DNA of 62,607 nucleotides, counting the filler, from Stramenopiles sp. TOSAG23-3 (taxonomy: Eukaryota), in the NCBI GenBank assembly GCA_900128585.1. It is 9 parts of 9 records of this genome, joined end to end, with 100 filler letters (N's around TTAATTAATTAA, not from the genome) between each part and the next. Parts side by side here need not be neighbours in the genome. Positions count along the whole stretch, not along the records: positions 55,453 to 57,166 come from LT645495.1; 8 more parts are not named here. One strand, 5' to 3'. Below are positions 11,041-62,607 of the stretch, piece by piece; position 1 is the first letter of the stretch, and each line of letters starts with the position of its first letter. Position numbers and translations under genes: made by a program. The notes under the pieces are model-generated. The model did not search any database. It saw nothing but the letters and a program-made list of their open reading frames with translations, and was not told where the DNA came from.

Positions 11041-11140
11041 NNNNNNNNNNNNNNNNNNNNNNNNNNNNNNNNNNNNNNNNNNNNTTAATTAATTAANNNN
11101 NNNNNNNNNNNNNNNNNNNNNNNNNNNNNNNNNNNNNNNN
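11041..11140. other. artificial contig linker N44-TTAATTAATTAA-N44 (also 22126-22225, 33210-33309, 44290-44389, 55353-55452, 57167-57266, 58981-59080, 60795-60894)
   Basis: Identical 100-nt spacer with stops in all six frames, found eight times; the flanking contigs fall in length order. Confidence 0.98.
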
Positions 11141-21863: not shown

Positions 21864-22226
21864 TCGTCATAGGTGCTATCTTGCATTTCAGTAAGATAGT
21901 AGAAAACTGTATATATAATATAAGAAATAATTTAATTTTCAAACGATACTCCAATAAAAAACTATGTCATTTCTTACTTCAAAAAAAGAGGGGAAAAAAT
22001 TATTTTAAAAAATTATTTTTTAAGCAAACCACCACACAACCTCCTTCCGCCGTCCCGGTTCAGCAGCTTCTTCAGGGCGAAATAGGTTACAATATTATTA
22101 TGTATTAGGGATTGTAACCACTAAANNNNNNNNNNNNNNNNNNNNNNNNNNNNNNNNNNNNNNNNNNNNTTAATTAATTAANNNNNNNNNNNNNNNNNNN
22201 NNNNNNNNNNNNNNNNNNNNNNNNNG

Positions 22227-33209: not shown

Positions 33210-34065
33210 NNNNNNNNNNNNNNNNNNNNNNNNNNNNNNNNNNNNNNNNNNNNTTAATTAATTAANNNNNNNNNNNNNNNNNNNNNNNNNNNNNNNNNNN
33301 NNNNNNNNNAATTAATTAGAATTACAAAGTTAGGGCTGGATTAATCCTATGCTCTGTGTATGTATTAGTGTGATATTTATTATTATAATTATAATCAAAT
33401 AAATAAATGGAAAAAAATGGCAGTTAAAATAAAAAATAATGTTAATATTAGGGTTTTGTTCGAACGTTAAAAATTAAATTAATAAATAAATAAAGTTATA
33501 CAGTAGGAGGAAATTTGTTCTTCTTTTAATAATAATTTTCAAGTTCGCCAATTTTCAAGATTTATTTTATTCAGCTTAACATGATCACAGTATTATTGAT
33601 TTTAATATTATACTACCGGTATAAAAAAATAAAAAAAGAAGAAGAAGAAAAAAGAAGAAAGAAGAGAAAAAAAAGAAAGAGGTGTTGAATTTTAATTTTC
33701 ACATTTGACATTTCACAGCTATTCTTTCTCATTTTGTATTTGCTATTATAGCACAAGTATTAAAGTGGCGAGTTAACGATAAATGGATACAGATCGATAA
33801 ATGGGAGAAGAACAGCAACATAAACTTGAAGAGAGGAATCGATATAGTATTTGAATATTTTGGTGAAGGGATCAACGCCAGTAGTTTTTTGTTCGGCAGT
33901 TTACTTTCCAACAGTTAATGGTGCAAGAAGTGGCAAAGAAAATAATATTTCTTGTACGCAAAATTCTCCACCTAGACGACATATAAAGTGGACGGCAGGC
34001 GAGCTCCGAAAGCCTAATCGTGAACATTTGAACAACCTACAGTTGGCCTGTATTATTGCAGAAAA

Positions 34066-37000
34066 ATGTCTTCCAAAACTCGAGCGAGCTTAGACGAACA
34101 CTTGGATAGAAGCCGCAGGCTTGAACTCGTGGAGCGGGGAAGGGGCAGGGCCATGTTTCAATCAAAAACGGGAGATGGGTACGATGTATTGCAGGATGAC
34201 TCGGATTCGTCAGGACGAGGTTCCAGGAGGCGACGCCCTATGTCCGCGAAAGTGCGCGGACAGAACGACCGGCCAGGAAAACGACGCCCCCGCACCGCAC
34301 GAACCAGGGCCGAGTCCGACGATGAGGAAGAGTTGAGCGGCATTGTTGTGAGGCGCTCCCAGCGGCGAGGCGGTGCCAGGCGGCCAATGTCGGCAACTAC
34401 TCGGCGACGGGGGGGGCGATTCAAGCGCACGAAAGGTGAGAAAAAAAGACCTTCCCATGGCCTTGCGCGAATCGAAAGAGCTGCTCAATGAAGCCAGGGA
34501 TTACCTTTCCAAACGAAATTTGGTCGATGACAGGGCAGGTAGAAGAAAAACGCCGCGGAAGACCCCCAAAAAGCGCCCAACTTCTGCACGAAAAATGCGA
34601 CGGCCACGTTCGGCAGTGGCCCTGTCTCGCCCGTCGGGCAAGAGGAAGGGCGGCGCGAACAACCGACGAGCATTTGGGGCTGGGCCTGGAGGCCCGCGGC
34701 GATCGGAAAGCACGAGCGGGCTGCTGCACGCGGCACGCGGACGGTCGAGCAATAACAAACGGAACCGTCGGGTCGACCGCATGAGCGTCATGCGCTGCGT
34801 TGAAAACGCGTTGATTAATGTCGACGACGTCATCGGTTTGGGAAACGTCAAAGTTCAAATAACAAAGAGCAATGACATTATTGTGGACGCGCACATCCTT
34901 GTGGACAGTCGCACGACTGTCAAGGAGGCCCACAAGCTGGCTACAAAGGCGAGGAAGCGCGCCATGCAGAGCAACACCGACATCTACGACGTTGTAGTCC
35001 ATGTCGACGCGCAAACGCGGTACATATCGGGACGCGACAGCGCTGAAATCGAAGAGGACATCTGCAGCGCTATGGCCACGATCAAGGAGGTCAGCAGCGT
35101 TGCACGAGTGAAGATCAACCGAAAGGGCGGTCGAATCGCTGCAAATGTGGAAATATTGGTGAACCCGGAGTTGAGAATGCGAGAGGTGCATTATGTTGCC
35201 AGAAGGGCACGAAAACTGGTGGAAGACATTCGCGACGTCGACGAGGCGGAAATACACCTTGAGCTGGCGAACAGTAGCAAGCTCGTCAATCGGGCGAGGA
35301 GTCGCGCCCGGACGGGATCGGCCAGTGATAAGATCGTGAATGGCTCGTACGAGAAGTCAGCGTCATCGCCTCAAACCACTACGGACGAAGACTTGTCGCA
35401 GACCTTTCCGCGTCAACCCCCACCGCGCCCACCTATGGTAGACACTAGCAGCCATACGGATGAAGAGGAGTACACGTACTCGGAAGATGAGTTTGAGACC
35501 GCCCCAAGAAGTTCCAAGAAAGAGAACCGAGGTGCATCAGCAAGTTCGAACCGGGAGAAAGACCCAATGTCCTTTATATCCCCGGAACGAAAGTACAGAG
35601 CACAGCAAGGCGGCCAGACGGGGGCAATGATGACCCCTCCTCGAAACATGAAAGCAATGTCCCCCGCAAGCCAGCATAGCGCACGGCAATCCGCACGGAC
35701 GCAGAGAATAGTTGGGATCACCCGCGACCCTCGTTTACGGCAAGTGCTGCGGAAAGTGAACGAACACATCCTGACAAGCGTACAATACCGAAGGTTTAAG
35801 TACGAGAAACGCCTCGTAGCGGTTGGCACGGCGTTGGCTGACATGGACAGAAGCGGCCGAGGTGCCTTGCCGGCTTCCGTGTTTGTGCAAGGGTTTGAGG
35901 GCCTCAACATTGGGCTGAACTTATTGGAAATTGAAAATTTCGTGAAAATGTTAGTCGGGGACCAGAACTACCAAGAAGACAGGTATAGCGTTCGCTTCGC
36001 CGATATCATCGATTCGTTGAGAAAGTTGCAACGCCAGGACGCAGACGGCGTGGGTTCCAGCACAGAAGACGAGGAAGCGCAACGAGATGCACTGACTAAA
36101 TATAGAGAGTACAGAAACAAAATAGAAGAGCAAAAATTAGACCAGGTCTCGGAGAGCATGGGCAGCCCCGCAAAGGGCAGGGCTGCCGAAAGCCCAAATG
36201 CAGCAGAAATGTCACCCTTACTCGCGAGCAAAACGGGTGCCCCCCGCAACAAACATCTTGATCAGGCCCGTGGCGGCGCCTGGGACAACGGAACCCCATC
36301 TCCGCTTCTAACCCACGCGGAAAAAGCAGCGAGGGTTTTAGAGAATAAAATGAATGATCTTCAAAAGGAACAACAGAGGGAGCTAGAAACGGCGCAGCTG
36401 AAGCTGCAAGAAGAGCAGAAAGAGCTAGTAGCCAGGGCAGCTAAATTTGAGGCAGAACGAAAGAGGCAGTTAGAGGACCTCGAGACAGAGAAGAAGAAAG
36501 CACTGGAAGAAAAATCTCGGGTGGAAAAGGAGGCAGAAGAACGAGAGTTGAAATTGGCCGAGGAAAAAATCCGCTTACAGGAAGAAGCAGCGGAACGCGA
36601 GCGACAGGCAAAGGAAGAATCTATGCGCGAGCAGTTGAAGAAAGAGTGGCTCGCCCGTGAGCAGGCTCAACAGCGCCGGCTGGAGTTGGAGAAAGAGAAG
36701 CGCAAGAAAGAACAGGAGGAGGAAAAACTTCGTATCGAGCGAGAAAAAGCTGCGCTTGAAAAGACAAGGGCAGAAATGGAACGGGCAAAGCGGGAATGGG
36801 AACTGAAGCGTGTTGAAGAAGAGAGGAAACGCGAAGAAAAGGCAGAAAGGGAAAAACTTGAACACGACAAGGCGGAGCTAGCCAAAGCCCTGGAAGAGCA
36901 GAAGCAGAGGCTTGAGGAGGAAAAAGCGAAGTGGGAGAAGCAGCAAGCGCTAGGGGTAGAACAAACTCGATTGAAAGAAGAAAGGAAGAGGATTGAACAA

Positions 37001-40000
37001 GAAGAGGCCGCAAGAGAAGAGCACGCCGAACTTCTTCGAAACGAAAGGGCAGCACAGGAAAAGCTTGCGCGCAGAATGGAGGAGTTAGAGGCCAGACTTG
37101 CTATGGAGGAGGCAGAGAAAAAAGCAATTTTTGAAGAGCAAGAGCGCATGAAAGATGAAAGGCAGCGCGAAGTCAATGCCGTAAAGGAAGAAATCAACCG
37201 CGAAGCCGCTGCAAGGATACATGCAGAGAAGGAAATGAACGAGCGCATGGCAGAAGAGAAGGCGGCCCTTCAAAGACAAGCGGAAGAGGACAGGCTTGCC
37301 CTGGAAAAAATAATAAACGAGTCTACAAAAGCTCGTGAGGCCGAAAAAGTGAGGCAGGAAGAGGCCGAAAAACAGGCGGCAGAAGAACGGGCCCAGTTGG
37401 AGGCGCAGATAAAAATGGAAAGAGAACAGAACGAGAAAGAGAAGGCGTTGATGCAAGAGCAATTGAGAAAGGAGCTAGAGGAAAAGATGATGTTGGATGC
37501 CAAACGCATTGCAAGCGAAGAAACCGAAGCGAAGCTAAGGGCAAGAGAAGAAGAGCTAGCGCGGGAACAGGCAGAGAAAGAAAAAGCGCTCGCAGAAGAA
37601 GCCCGGAAGAAGGTCGAGGAGATGGAGAAGCAGTTGAAACAGACCCAAGAGAAAATGAAACAGCAGCTGGCAGAAAAGGAGAAAGAAACGGAGCGATTGA
37701 AAATGGAAAAAATGGAGCAGGAGAAACAGGTGAAGCAAATTGCAGCTGAGGCAGGAAAAGTTGTGCTGGCCGCTATTCCAGACACCGCAGAGCTCACCCC
37801 ACACGTTGAATCTTCTTCCGAGGTGCAAAAAACCTTGTTTGCCGCCGATGATGCTATCGTAAGCATGCCACCAACAGGAGAAAAAGACGACGAATTAAGC
37901 AGAAGCCAGAATATTCGCATGAGGCGATTAAGTCGCAGCATTACCATTGAAACGGACACCGATTTAGAAGAAGAAGGGGAAGTGCAAAATCTTGAGCCCC
38001 CCTCAAACGAAGTCATGATCGAGCACTCCTACAGAATTCCCCAGGAAAACGTGACAACGAGGGGAGGAGAAACGGACCGCGAGTTAGAGAGTGGGGACAC
38101 CTTTGATGAGAATGCAATGATGCCTATGAAATCTTTTATTAGTACTTCGGCAGCAGCAGACGGCCCAAGAAAGAAGTGGGAGCCTATTGCAACACCGCAA
38201 GGAAAAAACCTGTACTGGTACAACTGGTCTTCGGGCGAAAGTCAATGGGAAATGCCAGATGAAGTCGCCAACGAGGGGACCCAGCCAAAAACCCAGACAT
38301 TGCTAGCAGCAACACCAAAAGCGGACAACTTGCAAAAATCGTCGGAACTTTGGAAAATTTTATTGGCTCGATCAGCCGTTGTTGAAAAGAAAGGCAAGTG
38401 GAATCGTATGATGGACCAGCAGACAAAGGAGCATTTTTATCACAACGAACAGACAGGCGTTTCGCAGTGGGATTTACCGAACAATTACTCCCAGGGCGCC
38501 GATGGCTCTTTCGCTACACCCAAGAAACAAACGTGTGTCTGGGAAGGCATTGCTACTCCTATGGGGCGCAACCTTTACTACTACAACTGGAAGACAGGGG
38601 AAAGCAGTTGGGAGAAACCCGAGGAATTGAAAACACCGCAAAACTCTGACAAGAAGCCTCGCGTTCTACCTTCAACACCGAAGGCAGAAGACGAGGGTAC
38701 CTCCAAACAACTTTGGTCGGTGCTTTTAGAGCGATCAGAAAAAGTGAAGGAGGCGGGAGAATGGTTTGAAATGTTGGACTCCAATACCAAAGAACGGTTT
38801 TATTACAATAAATCTACTGGTGCCCTGCAGTGGGAAGTACCGGACGCCCTTGCAATTAAGCAAGAGCGCCATTTGCACGCAGCAAAACACAATCTAATAA
38901 AGTCCCCGAAAGCTTCGGCAGCTTCCATCGCAACAACACGCGATGGGAAGAGGTGGGAGCCAATAACGACGCCCAAGGGGAAGAACCTGTATTATTACGA
39001 TTGGCACACTGGAAACAGTCAATGGGAGAAACCGGACGAGTTGAAATCTCCAGATCCTAAGCAGAACCATGTCTTGCCATCGAACAGTGCTGTTCATACC
39101 ATGACCGAATTGAGCGAATCGCAACAGCTCTGGGACTCTTTGCGAACCCGATCTAAAACATCGCGAATACAGGGCGACTGGTTGGAAATGGTCGATCCCC
39201 ACTCTCAAGAGAGGTTTTATTACAACACAACAAATGGAACCTCTCAGTGGGAAATGCCAAAGTTGACAGGAATGTGGGAAGCGTCCGACAAAGCCTTGCA
39301 GAAAGCGAACCGCTCAGACGTCTGGGAACCGGTCATGACACCGAAAGGACGATTGCTTTATTACTACAATAAAACAACCGGGGCAGCCCAAAGAAAAATA
39401 CCTGAAGGCTTTGATCCGCACACATCTTCTCATGGGGAGCACTTGCCGTCCACACCGAATTCTTCAGATGTGGAGCGGACGAAGCGTTTGTGGAAGGTCG
39501 TCTTAAACCGGTCGCGAGTAGTCGAAGTTCGCAGCGGTTGGGCACAGATGCACGATGATGTTACCCAGGAAATGTTTTTCCACCACTCCACAAATGGGAT
39601 TTCGCAATGGGAGCGCCCTACGGATTTTGATTCTGCTGGTGCAGCCAATGATGCCCAACAGATGACCTACCATGGCTCCCCGGGGGAGGCAAATAAGTCA
39701 AAGTGGCAACCAGTTGCTACTCCCAAAGGAAAAAATTTGTACTTCTGGAACAGCGAGACAGGGGAGTCGCAATGGGAAAGGCCCGCGGAACTGCCAGAAA
39801 ATAAACCCGCAGTGTCGCTAGGAACCACTGGGAACACCCACAACAAGCATGAAGTGTTGCCCTCAACACCAAAAGCGGGAAATGCCGTGAAGGCAAAAAA
39901 AATGTGGCAGGTTTTGCGCAGCAGGTCGAAAGAGATCCGGGTGATTGGCGACTGGTCGGAGTTTTTGGACGAGCAAACGGGAGAACACTTTTTTTACAAC

Positions 40001-40126
40001 AGTAGGAGTGGTGTGTCCCAATGGGAACTTCCGGAATCGTTAAAAGTGGCACAAGCAAACGCGAAGCTTCACTCCTCCCAACATGGAAACGCAGGGAATG
40101 ATGGAGGGTACGAGATTGACATTTAG
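34066..40126 (+). CDS. about 2000-aa protein: basic RPxSA head, two ZT_dimer-like domains, EF-hand-like loop, long coiled coil and 10 WW domains (frame change near 34409-34416)
   Basis: ORFs 34066-34491 and 34373-40126 overlap and join if one G is removed from a G8 run. Ten WW motifs at 38177-40033; E/K/R helix at about 36320-37750. Confidence 0.8.
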
Positions 40127-40532: not shown

Positions 40533-42269
40533 ATGTCTTCTCTAGCGTTTCGGGGCCAGGGCGACAAACGCACTTATGCGCAGGAGCAAGCTTTCATAAA
40601 GCACTGCGGGGGTGTTCAATATGAGATCCAAAAGGGCTTCGTTGAGAACATGAAAGTTCCAGTCAAGTTTTATGTAAATAATAAGTTAAAACCACTAATA
40701 TACGATGAGCTGAAGAACCATTGCAGCAGGGGGGCGAATGTTGGAGGCGTAAGTATTTTACAGTTGAATTTCTACTTTTTCCCTTTTTGCAGCACTAACA
40801 ACCATTGCGCCCCTTACCCCTTCTTAGTTTTTGCCTGCTGTTAAGCAAATGGCAAATGTAGCTGCCTTGCCGGGAATCGTAAGGGCGTCGATTGGTCTAC
40901 CAGACTGCCATGCAGGATACGGTTTTGCCATAGGGAACGTGGCCGCGTTTGATATGGCTGATCCCGAGGCGGTCGTGTCCCCCGGTGGGGTTGGTTTTGA
41001 CATAAACTGTGGCGTTCGACTGATCCGCACAAATCTTACCGAAGAGGACGTTTTGCCCGTGAAAGAACAGCTGGCGCAATCCATGTTTGATCATATCCCT
41101 GTCGGTGTCGGTAGCAAAGGAGTAATTCCGACGACATTCCCAAACCTGGAAGCAGCCTTGGAGATGGGCATGGACTGGAGTGTCCGAGAAGGGTACGCTT
41201 GGCCTGAGGATAAAGAGCACTGTGAGGAGTATGGGAGGATGCTGAATGCAGACCCTTCGAAAGTTAGTAAGAGGGCAAAAAAGAGAGGCTTGCCACAGTT
41301 AGGGACGTTGGGCGCAGGAAACCATTACGCCGAAATCCAGGTCGTTAGCGACGTGTACGACGCATCGGCTGCGAGGAAGATGGGACTCTTTCCTGGGCAA
41401 GTATGCGTGATGGTTCACAGCGGTTCCCGTGGCCTCGGGCACCAGGTAGCGACCGACGCACTGGTTGCCATGGAGAAGGCAATGGCCCGGGACAACCTAG
41501 TAACAAACGACCGCCAGTTAGCATGTGCAAAGATTCAGAGCAAAGAAGGCCAGGACTACTTGGCGGCGATGGCGGCGGCAGCAAATTATGCCTGGGTTAA
41601 TCGAAGCTCAATGACTTTCCTTACTAGACAAGCGTTTGCGAAAACGTTTCAATCTTCCCCGGATGACTTGGACATGCATCTGGTGTACGACACTTCACAC
41701 AACATTGCAAAAATTGAAGAGCATATCGTCGACGGCAAAATGAAAACGTTGCTGGTACACCGCAAAGGTTCCACTCGGGCCTTTCCTCCCCACCACCCAT
41801 TGATCCCAGTCGATTACCAGTTTGTAGGGCAGCCCGTTCTCATTGGCGGGTAAGTAAAGTCACCTCCCCCCACCCCTTCCTCTGCTTGTTGATTTTCCCT
41901 TCGTCTAACCTGTTTATTTCTTCTACGATCGTTTTTGTCTTTTTGCGGGTGCATTGCAGCACTATGGGAACGTGCAGTTACGTGCTGACGGGCACTGAAA
42001 AGGGAATGCGAGATACTTTTGGGTCTACCTGCCACGGTGCTGGGAGAGCTTCAAGCCGGGCCAAGTCGAGGCGAACGCTAGACTATCAGCATGTCCTAAA
42101 CGGGTTGGAGGAGAAAGGGATTACCATTAGGGTGGCCTCCCCGAAGCTCGTGATGGAAGAGGCACCGGAGAGCTACAAGGATGTAAACGAAGTGGTTAAT
42201 ACGTGCCACGAAGCGGGCATTTCGAAGAAGTGTGTGAAGTTGAAGCCGATATGTGTAATCAAGGGTTAG
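40533..42269 (+). CDS. RTCB: RNA-splicing ligase RtcB; exons 40533-40748, 40828-41849, 41960-42269 (515 aa)
   Basis: [65 protein letters not shown]. Two GTAAGT...CTAAC...YAG introns restore GG|FLPAVKQ and IG|GTMGT. Confidence 0.96.
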
Positions 42270-44289: not shown

Positions 44290-44970
44290 NNNNNNNNNNN
44301 NNNNNNNNNNNNNNNNNNNNNNNNNNNNNNNNNTTAATTAATTAANNNNNNNNNNNNNNNNNNNNNNNNNNNNNNNNNNNNNNNNNNNNGTACATTAATA
44401 CTAGTCGTCTATTATTATTATACGTACTGTACACGCACATCAATCATTCGAACTAATTGAGAAAATTATTAATCTCAGAATAGCACTGTGTAATATTAAT
44501 ACCGATATCGTTCTTCTTTTTTTCCTTTATCAGATTCAGCAGAGCATCGTATGTAATGTACAATCATCATCATCATACACAATGCACAATACCATCATCA
44601 TCATCAACCAGATTTATTATTTTAATTCTTCTAATCCAATACTCTTTTGTATTTCCCTACTATTTAGATCATCACACACACAACCGAAATTCAACTAAAT
44701 AGTCATAATAATAAAAAATAAAAAAAAATAAAATAATAATAGTCTCTACTGTATAGTACTACAGTACCTGGTACCAATAACGCACGACGAAGAATGACGA
44801 AGCGAAGGTCATCATGATGTATATATACGAGGTCCTCGTAGAGTATAGAAGACAATTTTAAAAAAAACAAACGAATTGTATACATAGATGTTTAAAGACA
44901 ACTAAAAAAACAAAAGAAACAAATATTCAACAAACAAACAACAAAAGAAAAGACGTTCGCTGCATTTACG

Positions 44971-55226: not shown

Positions 55227-55452
55227 TAAATATTTTGTTCTGTTGACGTGGTGATGTAGGAATGAGGAAATACATTTCCTAAGTGAAAATCGAAGAGAAA
55301 TGTTAATTTATTTTAATGAATGCTGTGTATATATAAGAGACTAAAATACCGANNNNNNNNNNNNNNNNNNNNNNNNNNNNNNNNNNNNNNNNNNNNTTAA
55401 TTAATTAANNNNNNNNNNNNNNNNNNNNNNNNNNNNNNNNNNNNNNNNNNNN

Positions 55453-55519
55453 GCAGGGTCGGGAGGTAAGACGCCGGACTCATGATCCGGAGGCCACGGT
55501 TCGAGCCCGTGTGCTGCTA
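55453..55519 (+). tRNA. trnM: tRNA-Met(CAT), first ~4 nt cut by contig edge
   Basis: D stem GTC/GAC, anticodon arm CCGGA-CTCATGA-TCCGG, T arm CACGG-TTCGAGC-CCGTG, acceptor 3' strand TGCTGCT-A. G rather than T at position 8. Confidence 0.85.
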
Positions 55520-55651
55520 GGTGGTCCGCGCCACCTTGCGTTGGGGGTCTGACTTAAAAGAATTAAGGCCAGTTGTCTTCAAACCTGAGGTTTGGGGTGC
55601 GCCCAGAGCTCGGGTTTGGCCCTGGGTGGCGTAATACTACGCCTACGTTAT

Positions 55652-56110
55652 ATGCTTACAGCGCTCCTTTACCTCGCAAGCGTATTAGTTGCTGTTTATG
55701 CGCTCCAATCAAGGGACCCGGCTCACTGTGTGATTGCTTTACTAGTACTTTTTGTTGGTGGATGTGTTTATTTGATCGCGATAAAGAAAGAGCTTGTGGG
55801 CCTCTCGCCTAGTCAGAAACTAAAAGCGTGCGTGGCCTACATGAAGGCCTACCTGGGCCGTCTTAGAACCCGTGCCGGGTATTGGCTCCTGGAGTTGGGG
55901 TTGATCGTAGTAGCGCGGGTGGTGTATGTCGTCTGGTGGTGAAGCTGGTGGTGATGGTCGTTAGACCACAGGCGGCGGGTGTTTTTTCTCGCCCTCCTGG
56001 CCTTCTTCATACTGGAAGAAGCCATCCTACGGCCCTACGGTTTTTCCCAGCTAGAGGTGCTCGCCCTTCTGGGGTGCCTCATATGCTTCATCCTTATCAT
56101 GTATTTCTAG
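55652..56110 (+). CDS. 152-aa hydrophobic ORF (code 4, UGA=Trp) with nad6-like N-terminus; probably chimeric
   Basis: MLTALLYLASVLVAVYALQSRDPAHCVIALLVLF...KELVGL resembles Nad6 (SKNPVHSVLFLILVF...EFLAL). Two in-frame TGAs (55940, 55952) lie in the run TGG TGG TGA AGC TGG TGG TGA TGG, followed by two more hydrophobic segments and TAG. Confidence 0.55.
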
Positions 56111-56174
56111 ATAAGGGGGGAGCAAAGGCGTGCCGCACCCTACCTTTGCTCCCCCCTTATCTAGAAATACATGA
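56097..56174. repeat. perfect 32-bp inverted repeat with 14-nt loop
   Basis: TCATGTATTTCTAGATAAGGGGGGAGCAAAGG (56097-56128) and its exact reverse complement (56143-56174). Confidence 0.95.
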
Positions 56175-56326
56175 GCCGTCTTCATAGCCGGGCCTGGAGT
56201 AGGGATCGGTACCGTGTTCGGGCCTCTCATCATAGGACTATCGCGCAAACCCGGCGAGAAGCAGCAGATGTTTATTTATGCCATCCCGGGCTGGCGATGG
56301 CCTTCCCCACCCTGTTCGCCTTCTAG
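56175..56326 (+). pseudogene. atp9: atp9 (ATP synthase subunit c) fragment, N-terminally truncated and internally deleted
   Basis: [35 protein letters not shown] (56187-56290), then in a shifted frame [11 protein letters not shown] (56291-56326). Consensus is [57 protein letters not shown]. Confidence 0.88.
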
Positions 56327-56408
56327 GGGCTGGGTGCTGGGCCTTTGGTAGAGGGGTCTGAGTTATTTGCGTCAAAGGTTTTCTACGCCACTGGCCTTCC
56401 CTCACGTC

Positions 56409-56479
56409 ACAGGTGTGGTGTAACGGTAGCACACCGGCCTTCAAAGCCGGGAGTAGGGGCTCGATTCCTCTTACCTGCG
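56409..56479 (+). tRNA. trnW: tRNA-Trp(TCA), UGA-decoding
   Basis: Full cloverleaf ACAGGTG-TG-GTGT-AACGGTA-GCAC-A-CCGGC-CTTCAAA-GCCGG-GAGT-AGGGG-CTCGATT-CCTCT-TACCTGC-G. Short variable loop, so not tRNA-Sec. A1:C72 mismatch and C at position 54. Confidence 0.88.
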
Positions 56480-56755
56480 TTGGCTCGTTCTGCCTTTTAG
56501 TGGGCTTTAGCTCGTGGGCCGTTAGGGCTTAGGCCCTGCAACCTATGCTCCCGCCCTCCCAGGCCTTTGCTGCTGGGTGGGGAGTGCGTTTGGGCTACAG
56601 CACGGCAGGTCTTGGGGTACCCCCGTTCTTAAGCTTCTTTTATAGGGGTGATCTCCCCTTTATTTCCTTAAGTTTACCGGGGCTCACTTGAGGGCCCTAA
56701 CAGTCCCTGCCACCGCACTGGACTCGTGGGTCGCCCTAGCTCTAGTGGGGGCTTG

Positions 56756-56827
56756 TGCGTTATAGCTCAGTGGTAGAGCGTCCGGCTGTTAACCGGAAGG
56801 TCTCGGGTTCAAGCCCCGGTAGCGCCT
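56756..56827 (+). tRNA. trnN: tRNA-Asn(GTT)
   Basis: TGCGTTA-TA-GCTC-AGTGGTA-GAGC-G-TCCGG-CTGTTAA-CCGGA-AGGTC-TCGGG-TTCAAGC-CCCGG-TAGCGCC-T; T1:C72 mismatch. Confidence 0.9.
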
Positions 56828-57138
56828 ATAACCTTGTGCGGCCTGGCTTTCTCAGGCCCTTAAAAGGGTCAAGAGGGCGGGGGTTTTGTGGGTCAGGGGG
56901 TTGGGCTCCCGCCCTAAACTAGGGGTGGGTGGGCTCTGTCATCCCGTGTCTTCGGGCTTGGGTTCCTAGCTGTAGGTCCGGGGTAGGGTTTCTCGGGTAA
57001 GCTGTCCGTCTGGGTGGGTGTTTTACCCCCTTTGTTCTGCCAATCTTGCGGCCCTCGCAACCTCTATCGCCGGCACCTCGTTCTTCCTCGTCCTTCGTTT
57101 GCCCGGGTGTCATGGCCGTATCAGGCCCTGCCGGTTTG

Positions 57139-57166
57139 GCCTGCATAGCTCAATTGGCAGAGCATC
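57139..57166 (+). tRNA. 5' part of a tRNA (identity unknown), cut by contig edge
   Basis: GCCTGCA-TA-GCTC-AATTGGCA-GAGC-A-TC gives an acceptor 5' strand and a canonical D arm. Confidence 0.7.
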
Positions 57167-57290
57167 NNNNNNNNNNNNNNNNNNNNNNNNNNNNNNNNNN
57201 NNNNNNNNNNTTAATTAATTAANNNNNNNNNNNNNNNNNNNNNNNNNNNNNNNNNNNNNNNNNNNNGCTGCGTGTGCTAAACCAATCTTT

Positions 57291-58980: not shown

Positions 58981-59080
58981 NNNNNNNNNNNNNNNNNNNN
59001 NNNNNNNNNNNNNNNNNNNNNNNNTTAATTAATTAANNNNNNNNNNNNNNNNNNNNNNNNNNNNNNNNNNNNNNNNNNNN

Positions 59081-59315
59081 AAGAAGAAGAAGAAGAAGAA
59101 GAAGAAGAAGAAGAAGAAGAAGAAGAAGAAAAGAAGAAGAAGAAGGAGAAGAAGAAGAAGAAGAAGAAGAAGAAGAAAGAAGAGAAGAAGAAGAAAGAAG
59201 AAGAAAGAAGAAGAAGAAGAAGAAGGAAGAAGAAGAAGAAGAAAAAAAAGAAAAAGAAGAAGAAGAAAGAAGAAGAAAGAAGAAGAAAGAAGAAGAAGAA
59301 GAAGAAGGAAGAAGA
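59081..59315. repeat. (GAA)n microsatellite at contig start
   Basis: Seen directly. Confidence 0.95.
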
Positions 59316-59557
59316 ATAATATATAATTAGGACTAAAATATTATTATATTATCAATCAATTATTATTATTAATATAATTATTAATTGAAATTGAAATTGA
59401 AATTGAAAATTACAATTTAGATATTTCTTTTTGTTCCATTGTTTGGAGTTCACTGTTTTTTCTTTATCGAAAATTTGAGTAGTTATTTCCTTGTCTTTCT
59501 GCCTTAGTGTTTCTTGTTAACTGTTCTGAGCTACGAGAAATACGACTTTCGTTCATC

Positions 59558-60793: not shown

Positions 60794-62607
60794 GNNNNNN
60801 NNNNNNNNNNNNNNNNNNNNNNNNNNNNNNNNNNNNNNTTAATTAATTAANNNNNNNNNNNNNNNNNNNNNNNNNNNNNNNNNNNNNNNNNNNNATTAAG
60901 ATGCACTCGCGCATTGTGTTTTATGTTCGTTTGGGGTGGTTTGTAAATAAATGTTATGTTTATTTCTTTGTTTTTATCGCTTTGAGTAAAACTTTCTGTT
61001 TCTTTTACTTCTTTTAAATACTTTTCTTACATTGACGTATGTCACTTTGGAACGTCGAAGTGTCGCGACGTGTGGTTGCGTGTTGCAGGGGAGTGTGTGT
61101 GTGTGCATACTGCACAATACAAGGGGAGGCATGGGAGGCATGGGGGATGGGAACCTCTTTTAGATTGGGATGTCAATGCTGTGTCTACCTTTGCAGACAA
61201 ATACCAATTTGACAAATGATCCATGGCTTCTTGGATTTTAATGCTATGTGCCTGTAAGTAATAAATATGAATTTCTAAAACCTGTGAATGCTACTTTTGA
61301 TTTTCAATGCTATTTCTATGTTAATTATTTGTTTTTGAAGCGATTTTTTGTTGTTGTAAAAATTCGGTGTGCAGTCCGTCCGCGCCATAAAAAAAAGGGA
61401 AAAAAGGAATTAATGAAATATTTCATTTGATTTCGGAGTTTTCCAAAGGCTCGTTGTGGATGATGTGACCCATTAAATTTGGCAGTTTTCTGAAAATATG
61501 TGAAAACATTTTTTTCTTACTTTTTCTAAAATAATTTACTTTATTTTTTTCATTGTTTCATTTGGAAACAATTAGGAATTTAACGATCAAATGATCGAAT
61601 GAATTTTGATTCGATATCAATGCTCTGTACCTTCTAATTTTGAACTTGGCAGTCCGTTTAAAATACGTTAAATTTCTTTTGCCTCAAAAAAGAAAAAACT
61701 GAGCAATTTCTACGGTCATTTTCAATGCTATTACTATGTTATAATTTAAACGGTGAAAATCCGTTTCTTTCTTTCTTTTTCTTTTTTCTTCTTTTGATTT
61801 TTGCCGTTGCATTTTAATCTTCAATTTAAAACCAGATATTACAATATTATTTTGAAGGATAAATATGTATACTATTTGATTACTAAACCAAAAGAAAAAC
61901 AAAGTTAGAACATAAGATTTTAATAAAAGAAGAAATCGAACGATCATTCCGTTGAACAACGTTTTCCCCTCTCCCCCTAACGGTCTCAAAAAGAACCTGA
62001 TATTTCAAAAAAATACTGGAAATTAAAACAGGCTGAGATATTAATTCTCAGATATCTACTTTTTGCTATCAGAAAGAAAGAAAGAAAACGGACCAAAAAA
62101 ACAAAATCAAACTTGTTGGCTGAAGAAAGACCTCTTTTTTTTAGATTGATGTCGGAGGGATGGAGGCGAGTCAAGCAAAGCATCCCATACTATTGTGTGT
62201 TGATAAATTATATTCTAAATTAAATTTAAAAAAAAAAGTTCTCATTTTTTAAGTTTTTTTTTTACTACTTTCAATTATTCAATGGTATTCCTATGTATAT
62301 TTTGACCGTTCAACCACTTGCAGGTTCCCCCCCTATTTTTAGCCACTAAGAAACGAGACCAGGGACACAACAGCAAACAACCAAAAAGACAAGAAGTGCG
62401 CCAAGTTAAACCATCAGTATATATATACCACCGTCCTTCCATAAGCATCACGCTGACAACACACATTCGATTTCAAAGTCTTAAAAGAATTTACAACGCC
62501 ATTTCATTCAATTAATAAAACAAGAAACAAACAAAGAAATAAACATAACATTTATTTACAAACCACCCCAAACGAACATAAAACACAATGCGCGAGTGCA
62601 TCTTAAT

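Follow-up and report, generated by a model that had tools for sequence, protein, structure and literature searches.

The window, the whole stretch of 62,607 nucleotides that was analysed, is made up of separate contigs chained by spacers of the form N44-TTAATTAATTAA-N44 (positions 11041-11140, 22126-22225, 33210-33309, 44290-44389, 55353-55452, 57167-57266, 58981-59080 and 60795-60894) and does not represent one molecule; because the spacers join separate contigs, linkage across any of them is not real. Five pieces of about 11 kb are followed by four of about 1714 bp, and the open reading frame (ORF) under study lies on the first of the short pieces, a contig of 1714 bp (55453-57166) with a GC content of 57%. 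Its genes and features follow one another in the order trnM(CAU) (partial), ORF, hairpin, atp9 fragment, trnW(UCA) and trnN(GUU). The trnM(CAU) gene (55453-55520, plus strand; ARAGORN, Rfam tRNA model 44.1 bits) has lost its 5' end at the end of the contig, and is complete at positions 429-499 of the JGI metagenome contig L001 (2123 bp), which carries an independent copy of the ORF. The trnN(GUU) gene (56755-56828, plus strand) was called by ARAGORN and Rfam. At the other end of the contig, positions 57138-57166 resemble the acceptor and D arm (the 5' half) of a further tRNA, which was called by no tool. A permissive Rfam scan returned tRNAs and otherwise sub-threshold matches of the miRNA type to the hairpin, which we take to be generic hairpin matches.

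The five longer pieces bear eukaryotic nuclear genes with few introns, among them those for an AP medium subunit, RtcB, a PTEN-like phosphatase, DRMBL and a methyltransferase of the NDUFAF7 type. In a cluster look-up, the clusters closest to the AP-mu protein belonged to Basidiomycota, Haptophyta and Chordata, a mixture that says nothing about its affinity. The RtcB ORF (40849-41853, plus strand) covers profile positions 3-325 of 426 only, and the gene is probably interrupted after 41853 by an intron or a frameshift. An alanine-rich ORF of 1889 residues (34457-40126, plus strand) combines a ZT_dimer domain near its N-terminus with many WW-domain repeats (Pfam WW, E 2.6e-56), an unusual pairing. 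The second short contig (57267-58980) is GC-rich as well and contains an inverted, diverged copy of 56583-57029 with an identity of 80-94% depending on the segment, including a degenerate trnN for which ARAGORN makes no call; the remainder of this contig (57630-58980) gave no match in Pfam or Rfam, and the ORFs of this neighbouring contig matched no Pfam family. Positions 59081-59320, apparently on a nuclear contig, consist of a long, imperfect AAG microsatellite and, after it, DNA that is very rich in AT.

The ORF itself (55652-56110, plus strand) has 152 codons under genetic code table 4 and was handled as protein P0001. The frame had been described from the sequence alone, and each element of that description was recovered: under the standard code it stops at 55942, whereas with UGA read as tryptophan it runs to a TAG at 56108-56110 and table 4 translation yields the 152-residue protein originally quoted; the two in-frame TGAs, codon 97 (55940-55942) and codon 101 (55952-55954), stand among TGG codons (55934-55957 reads TGG TGG TGA AGC TGG TGG TGA TGG); and a trnW gene with anticodon TCA, said to lie about 300 bp away, was located by ARAGORN at 56408-56480, 298 nt past the stop. 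The length of the frame is by itself no evidence in such GC-rich DNA, as 45.5% of the sequences contained a stop-free run of at least 152 codons under table 4 when the 1714-bp contig was simulated 2000 times with a first-order Markov model. The copy in L001 is 95% identical at the protein level and keeps both TGAs.

The ORF belongs to a family. A database search returned 13 proteins at E <= 0.01 among 498 candidates, namely eleven relatives of the chimeric type (P0002-P0012) and two true Nad6 proteins (P0013 and P0014). By cluster look-up the ORF falls into at least three types, namely type 1 (window, L001, P0033-P0045), type 2 (P0002 and 28 cluster mates) and type 3 (P0005 and P0063). The family was seen in marine assemblies only. 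L001 is the one relative among the matches listed from at least 593 pattern matches in metagenome contigs, and neither the 147 pattern matches in viral contigs nor the 153 in genome contigs yielded a relative. Longer fused forms were absent among 3917 candidates of 267-2000 residues, which is weak evidence. General literature searching turned up no description of the ORF family, which may nonetheless have been published.

Both in-frame TGAs reside in a 12-nt tandem duplication at 55934-55957 (plus strand; TGGTGGTGAAGC followed by TGGTGGTGATGG, 10 of 12 bases identical) that L001 shares and that types 2 and 3 lack, the latter having WW[G/E/R]S at this site. If UGA were a stop codon, the product would have 96 residues, ending at the first TGA, and the tail would be untranslated. 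Such a reading could draw on the variability of position 97, which is G, E or R in relatives, so that the TGA there could be a nonsense mutation, and on the second TGA being a duplicate of the first. We consider it very unlikely for the following reasons. The trnW(UCA) gene 298 nt downstream (plus strand; Rfam tRNA model 54.7 bits), a decoder of UGA, is kept in L001, and the tail beyond the TGAs is intact and the same in L001 save for the exchange Q133E. Furthermore, gene calls made under table 11 in relatives stop exactly where homologues have tryptophan: P0043, called from L001, ends at WW, immediately 5' of a TGA that is seen in the DNA, while P0033 and P0037 end at ...AVW where relatives show W, and P0009 ends at ...AKY, a site at which Y-W stands in the window. 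The cox3 call P0003 likewise stops after ...ASW, at a point where a second tryptophan presumably follows in cox3; in these four calls the next codon is inferred. The ends of table-11 calls (P0003 for cox3, P0033, P0009) would place TGA at conserved tryptophans of standard genes. Passages of PMC7748506 state that UGA can be decoded as tryptophan thanks to trnW(uca), and describe Marsupiomonas as having neither trnW(uca) nor a reassigned UGA; for the mitogenomes of Chloropicophyceae, passages of PMC6486808 give trnW(cca), and on these grounds both groups were set aside as sources of the ORF contig. Together, the adjacent trnW(UCA) and the end points of the table-11 calls support reading UGA as tryptophan in the mitochondrial DNA (mtDNA) that carries the ORF.

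The first third of the protein derives from nad6. The preliminary description had placed the end of the Nad6 similarity at about residue 51 and had noted that the conserved helix YVGAIxVLF is missing, and both observations hold. BLASTP against the true Nad6 P0013 aligned residues 1-52 with 42 of 52 identities (E 3e-24) and nothing beyond; where P0013 continues past residue 52 with LIVIYAGAVAVLFMFVIF (its residues 53-70), the ORF has PSQKLKACVAYMKAYLGR in place of the conserved helix and runs on past residue 52 as PSQKLKACVAYMKAY, so that the third transmembrane helix of Nad6 (Y-x-G-A-x-x-V-L-F type) is absent. The proposed search with the Oxidored_q3 model (PF00499) returned a signal at residues 14-51, albeit a weak one (E 0.034, 14.3 bits against a gathering cut-off of 33.2), by which the ORF is not a member of this family; P0013 passes the same cut-off with 52.7 bits. 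BLASTP and hhalign both align the head only (47 columns in hhalign), and full-length homology to Nad6 was not found.

An intact nad6 was sought elsewhere and found: complete proteins of 183 residues are present in P0013, P0046, P0048 and others, and the DNA run X1, in which the ORF is also present, contains a separate true-nad6 contig that diverges from the ORF contig at 55808. The true nad6 exists in two haplotypes that are identical at 175 of 183 residues (8 of 183 differ) and at 51 of 52 in the head; a search for named relatives of this nad6 gave just the six proteins of its own family, none of which bears a name. These data decide on the second of the two readings initially offered, according to which the ORF would be the organism's own nad6, extremely divergent, or its N-terminal half. 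Residues 1-52 are indeed nad6, and the number of hydrophobic segments, five, is that of Nad6. However, a complete Nad6 above the Pfam cut-off occurs in the same populations (P0013, P0046, P0048), the same DNA run has its own nad6 contig, and hhalign matches none of the tail. Because an intact and well-conserved nad6 exists elsewhere, we reject the interpretation as a divergent or split nad6, which is hardly credible.

The extent of the nad6-derived segment was determined from true-nad6 contigs. Record 25 of run X17 matches the ORF contig at 55623-55808 only and then continues with TTATAGTGATTTACGCGGGG..., reading LIVIYAG (in a longer form TTATAGTGATTTACGCGGGGGCGGTTGCTG, reading LIVIYAGAVA). 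Since this contig departs at 55808, the duplicated segment consists of 29 nt of 5' flank and codons 1-52 of nad6 (55623-55808, plus strand; true-nad6 contig matching and BLASTP), and the breakpoint lies at 55808/55809. One part of the ORF comes from a standard mitochondrial gene and meets unrelated sequence at a sharply defined breakpoint, and the intact parent gene nad6 is kept elsewhere.

Words of the ORF contig turned up in 20 of the 24 public runs listed; barring two small runs of coded organisms, these are marine or seawater metagenomes or metatranscriptomes. The junction was examined in one DNA run (X1) and in three RNA libraries (X15, X16 and X17) from three studies. The junction, which the preliminary description had placed near 55805, is bridged at 55808 by assembled contigs from three of three RNA libraries and from the DNA run: record 4 of X1 (DNA; 55738-56113), record 10 of X15 (55733-56128), record 16 of X16 (55620-55870) and record 24 of X17 (55453-55857). 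X17 has no contig over 55859-56148, and this lack of cover is not evidence of absence. The RNA-library contigs are assembled and document presence in the library; they do not prove transcription, because such libraries can contain DNA. Since the DNA run, the three RNA libraries and L001 all cross the junction, the ORF is not an assembly chimera.

The ORF is located in mitochondrial DNA, as indicated by the flanking trnM, trnW(UCA) and trnN genes and by the contigs on which its relatives are listed. For two differing type 2 copies (P0025 and P0029) and for the true nad6 P0048, the listed contig has a length of 67,292 bp in each case, and P0031 and two pieces of nad6 are listed on a contig of 42,174 bp. 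When the 67,292-bp contig is taken to be one and the same in these listings, which is inferred, the ORF and true nad6 very probably share one mtDNA of at least 67 kb, and a genome of type 2 probably contains several copies of the ORF (two in this case). Two other origins were weighed against this location, a transfer of mitochondrial DNA to the nucleus (NUMT) and a chimera made by assembly. The assembly around the ORF contig is otherwise nuclear, the contig contains broken gene pieces such as the atp9 fragment, and its 3' part has a diverged inverted copy on the next contig, all of which would fit a NUMT or a chimera. On the other hand, there is no nuclear flank, both ends of the contig lie inside tRNA genes, the tRNA genes are intact, the identical junction recurs in L001 and in four runs, and the type 2 relatives and true nad6 are each found on a contig of 67,292 bp. 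A nuclear or artefactual origin is therefore highly improbable.

The neighbourhood of the ORF bears the marks of recombination. In L001 the ORF is preceded by a 3' fragment of atp9 (741-890 of L001, ATP-synt_C 28.1 bits) and by more of the nad6 upstream region, and the trnW spacer lies directly 3' of the ORF; in the window, this upstream insert is missing 5' of the ORF. The window instead has an atp9 pseudogene fragment 3' of the ORF (56179-56335, plus strand), which lacks a 5' end, is broken in frame by an internal deletion and scores 16.9 bits with ATP-synt_C, below the cut-off of 24. At 56287-56292 the true-atp9 contigs are longer by 28 letters, and outside 56179-56335 they part from the window. 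The two atp9 fragments are different pieces on opposite sides of the ORF, 3' in the window, where the fragment is more decayed, and 5' in L001. Both arrangements occur in the examined runs: record 10 of X15 joins 56128 to 56341 in the manner of L001, and a joint from 55622 to 56213 was seen in X1.

Between the ORF and the atp9 fragment, positions 56097-56174 form a perfect 32-bp inverted repeat with a 14-nt loop (repeat I6), whose left arm holds the last four codons of the ORF and its stop. The predicted hairpin has a folding energy of -60.6 kcal/mol (z -12), and none of 200 shuffles was as good. In L001 (1455-1510) there is no hairpin (z -1.15), and the 14 nt that form the loop are the reverse complement of those in the window. 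The repeat resembles what an inverted duplication would leave at a breakpoint of recombination, an assembly path through the repeat being a less likely source.

The middle part of the ORF, approximately residues 53-94 (55809-55933, plus strand), comprises a basic amphipathic stretch and one hydrophobic helix, and is found in relatives 5' of cox3 as well. In P0003, P0039, P0042 and P0044 the head and the middle precede the N-terminus of cox3 directly and in frame (COX3 Pfam 26.4 bits), which is why table-11 calls fuse them. The head and the middle may constitute a shared 5' module. The head of the cox3-linked copies is either identical to that of true nad6 or of the window type, which, as judged from the sequences, points to an ongoing exchange between copies.

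The three parts of the ORF change at different rates. The head (residues 1-52) of P0001 is identical to type 2 at 41 of 52 positions (79%) and to type 3 at 19 of 44 (43%), whereas the same head in true nad6 shows 98% identity between haplotypes; the head of the ORF, being far less kept than its counterpart, is released from the constraint on nad6. The middle (residues 53-102) changes fastest in the protein comparison (27 of 46 identical to type 2, 59%, and 23 of 46 to type 3), and the tail alone is held. The tail (residues 103-152; 55958-56107, plus strand), consisting of the motif SLDHRRR followed by two hydrophobic helices, is identical at 44 of 50 positions (88%) to type 2 and at 44 of 50 to type 3, and nearly all of the 46 columns that are invariant in five sequences fall into it. 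Between the ORFs of the window and L001 there are 11 changes, 6 of them non-synonymous (342 sites) and 5 synonymous (114 sites), and the resulting dN/dS of about 0.4 leans towards constraint and is not significant with 11 changes. In trnM and its spacer, the sole flank measured, 2 of 168 positions differ between the window and L001. Indels among the types are multiples of three, 12 nt each, and are situated in short tandem repeats, where slippage stays in frame. The tail has a T frequency of 0.43 at codon position 2 and a GC3 of 0.71, values that fit DNA coding for a hydrophobic protein.

The tail is an orphan in the searches performed. A profile of the middle and the tail, run against 1,835,955,588 representative proteins, retrieved only the representative of its own family and one spurious tandem-repeat protein, and no Pfam family matched the tail region in any frame or on the other strand. 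Hydropathy analysis, the check that had been proposed for the supposed membrane nature of the product, gave five hydrophobic segments with basic loops, and an AF2 model is all-helical with six helices at low confidence (pLDDT 57.7, pTM 0.30). The product is therefore predicted to be a hydrophobic, all-helical protein with five or six hydrophobic helices.

Taken together, the data support the first of the original readings, that of a chimeric mitochondrial membrane ORF born by recombination: a nad6 segment is duplicated and ends exactly at 55808, the intact nad6 co-exists, the junction is bridged, and the product is predicted to be hydrophobic and all-helical. As to how it arose, repeat-mediated recombination would have duplicated the start of nad6 (codons 1-52 with at least 29 nt of the flank before them) and joined the duplicate at 55808/55809 to sequence without detectable relatives, giving the frame of 152 residues, while the intact nad6 would have stayed elsewhere on the same mtDNA. 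The ORF would be one of a set of recombining modules, with the head and middle before cox3 and atp9 fragments on either side, and would be transcribed along with its neighbours as a by-product that is carried along. Under this scheme the head and the middle would drift at an approximately unconstrained rate, and the last 50 codons may owe their stability to weak selection for a small membrane hairpin at the C-terminus, or else to copies of the sequence being homogenised with one another. The sequences show a genuine chimeric frame in mtDNA, built from a nad6 5' module and orphan sequence with the intact nad6 retained, and place it in a marine planktonic eukaryote that would read UGA as tryptophan. 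That the ORF is mainly a by-product of repeat recombination that travels with its neighbours we regard as reasonably probable, though well short of certain.

The ORF may alternatively be a functional, lineage-specific gene for a mitochondrial membrane protein, in which the tail is the working part, the 5' flank and start codons of nad6 were captured for expression, and selection keeps the gene. The identity of the tail across three types (44 of 50) with head and middle far less alike, the concentration of the invariant columns in the tail, its codon position 2 and GC3 values, the frame being open in the window, in L001 and in types 2 and 3, and the contigs from three RNA libraries crossing the junction all speak for such a gene. 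Yet natural samples contain frameshifted alleles (P0010/P0036, P0011 and P0061), no relatives exist beyond a narrow group, the head evolves much faster than its counterpart in true nad6, the dN/dS of 0.4 is not significant, and the probable multiple copies in type 2, together with the head and middle before cox3, have the look of a dispersed repeat. Having weighed these points, we hold a functional gene to be the main rival of the by-product reading, and clearly the less probable of the two. That the tail is 88% identical while the head drops to 43% would, as far as sequence comparison goes, fit better to a translated and selected C-terminal domain than to pure debris. Somewhat more doubtful still is that the tail forms the core of a real, undescribed mitochondrial membrane protein, and that the nad6 module is a shared mobile cassette for expression or a leader, used before cox3 as well; the protein might then be a new organelle-encoded subunit or a selfish conflict element akin to those of cytoplasmic male sterility (CMS).

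The preferred reading, a recombination by-product, invites comparison with the chimeric ORFs of plant CMS, to which the preliminary description had likened the locus. According to PMC3789559, chimeric ORFs that are born by rearrangement are regarded as the main cause of CMS. The ORF studied here resembles plant CMS ORFs in its origin by mtDNA rearrangement, in having the opening codons of a standard respiratory gene, with their 5' flank, fused to DNA of obscure origin, in the retention of the intact parent gene, in the fragments of other genes that adjoin it (here atp9) and in the small hydrophobic product that is predicted. It differs in that its host is a marine, unicellular-type eukaryote with UGA=Trp and not a land plant, and in that the ORF is common to at least three diverged types, probably with more than one copy per genome in type 2. 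CMS ORFs are usually young and specific to a line. The likeness holds for the architecture and is limited to it. The family also exceeds a typical CMS ORF in age and in how widely it has been copied.

A second point of comparison is provided by repeat-rich mtDNAs. In several fungal and algal mtDNAs, gene fragments are dispersed, breakpoints bear GC-rich palindromes and more than one arrangement occurs. The setting of the ORF, with its fragments, its palindrome and its alternative arrangements, is like that of the unassigned ORFs and partial gene duplicates in these genomes, whereas no specific described family matches the ORF and its tail is an orphan. In relation to Nad6 (PF00499), the first 52 residues with their two helices are homologous and identical at 42 of 52 positions to the lineage's own protein, while the ORF as a whole falls below the Pfam cut-off, lacks the third helix and has 100 further residues that are unrelated.

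For annotation, it follows that the frame at 55652-56110 should not be named nad6, and that table-11 gene calls in contigs of this kind are truncated at tryptophan codons. The locus provides a clear case outside land plants in which mitochondrial recombination builds a chimeric frame from the head of a respiratory gene and orphan sequence, and the ORF is common to several related marine lineages, in which public metagenome and metatranscriptome data allow it to be traced. Translation of the tail would make it a new membrane protein encoded in the organelle; an untranslated tail would leave the locus as a useful marker of a mitochondrial genome that is GC-rich, recombines very actively and reads UGA as tryptophan.
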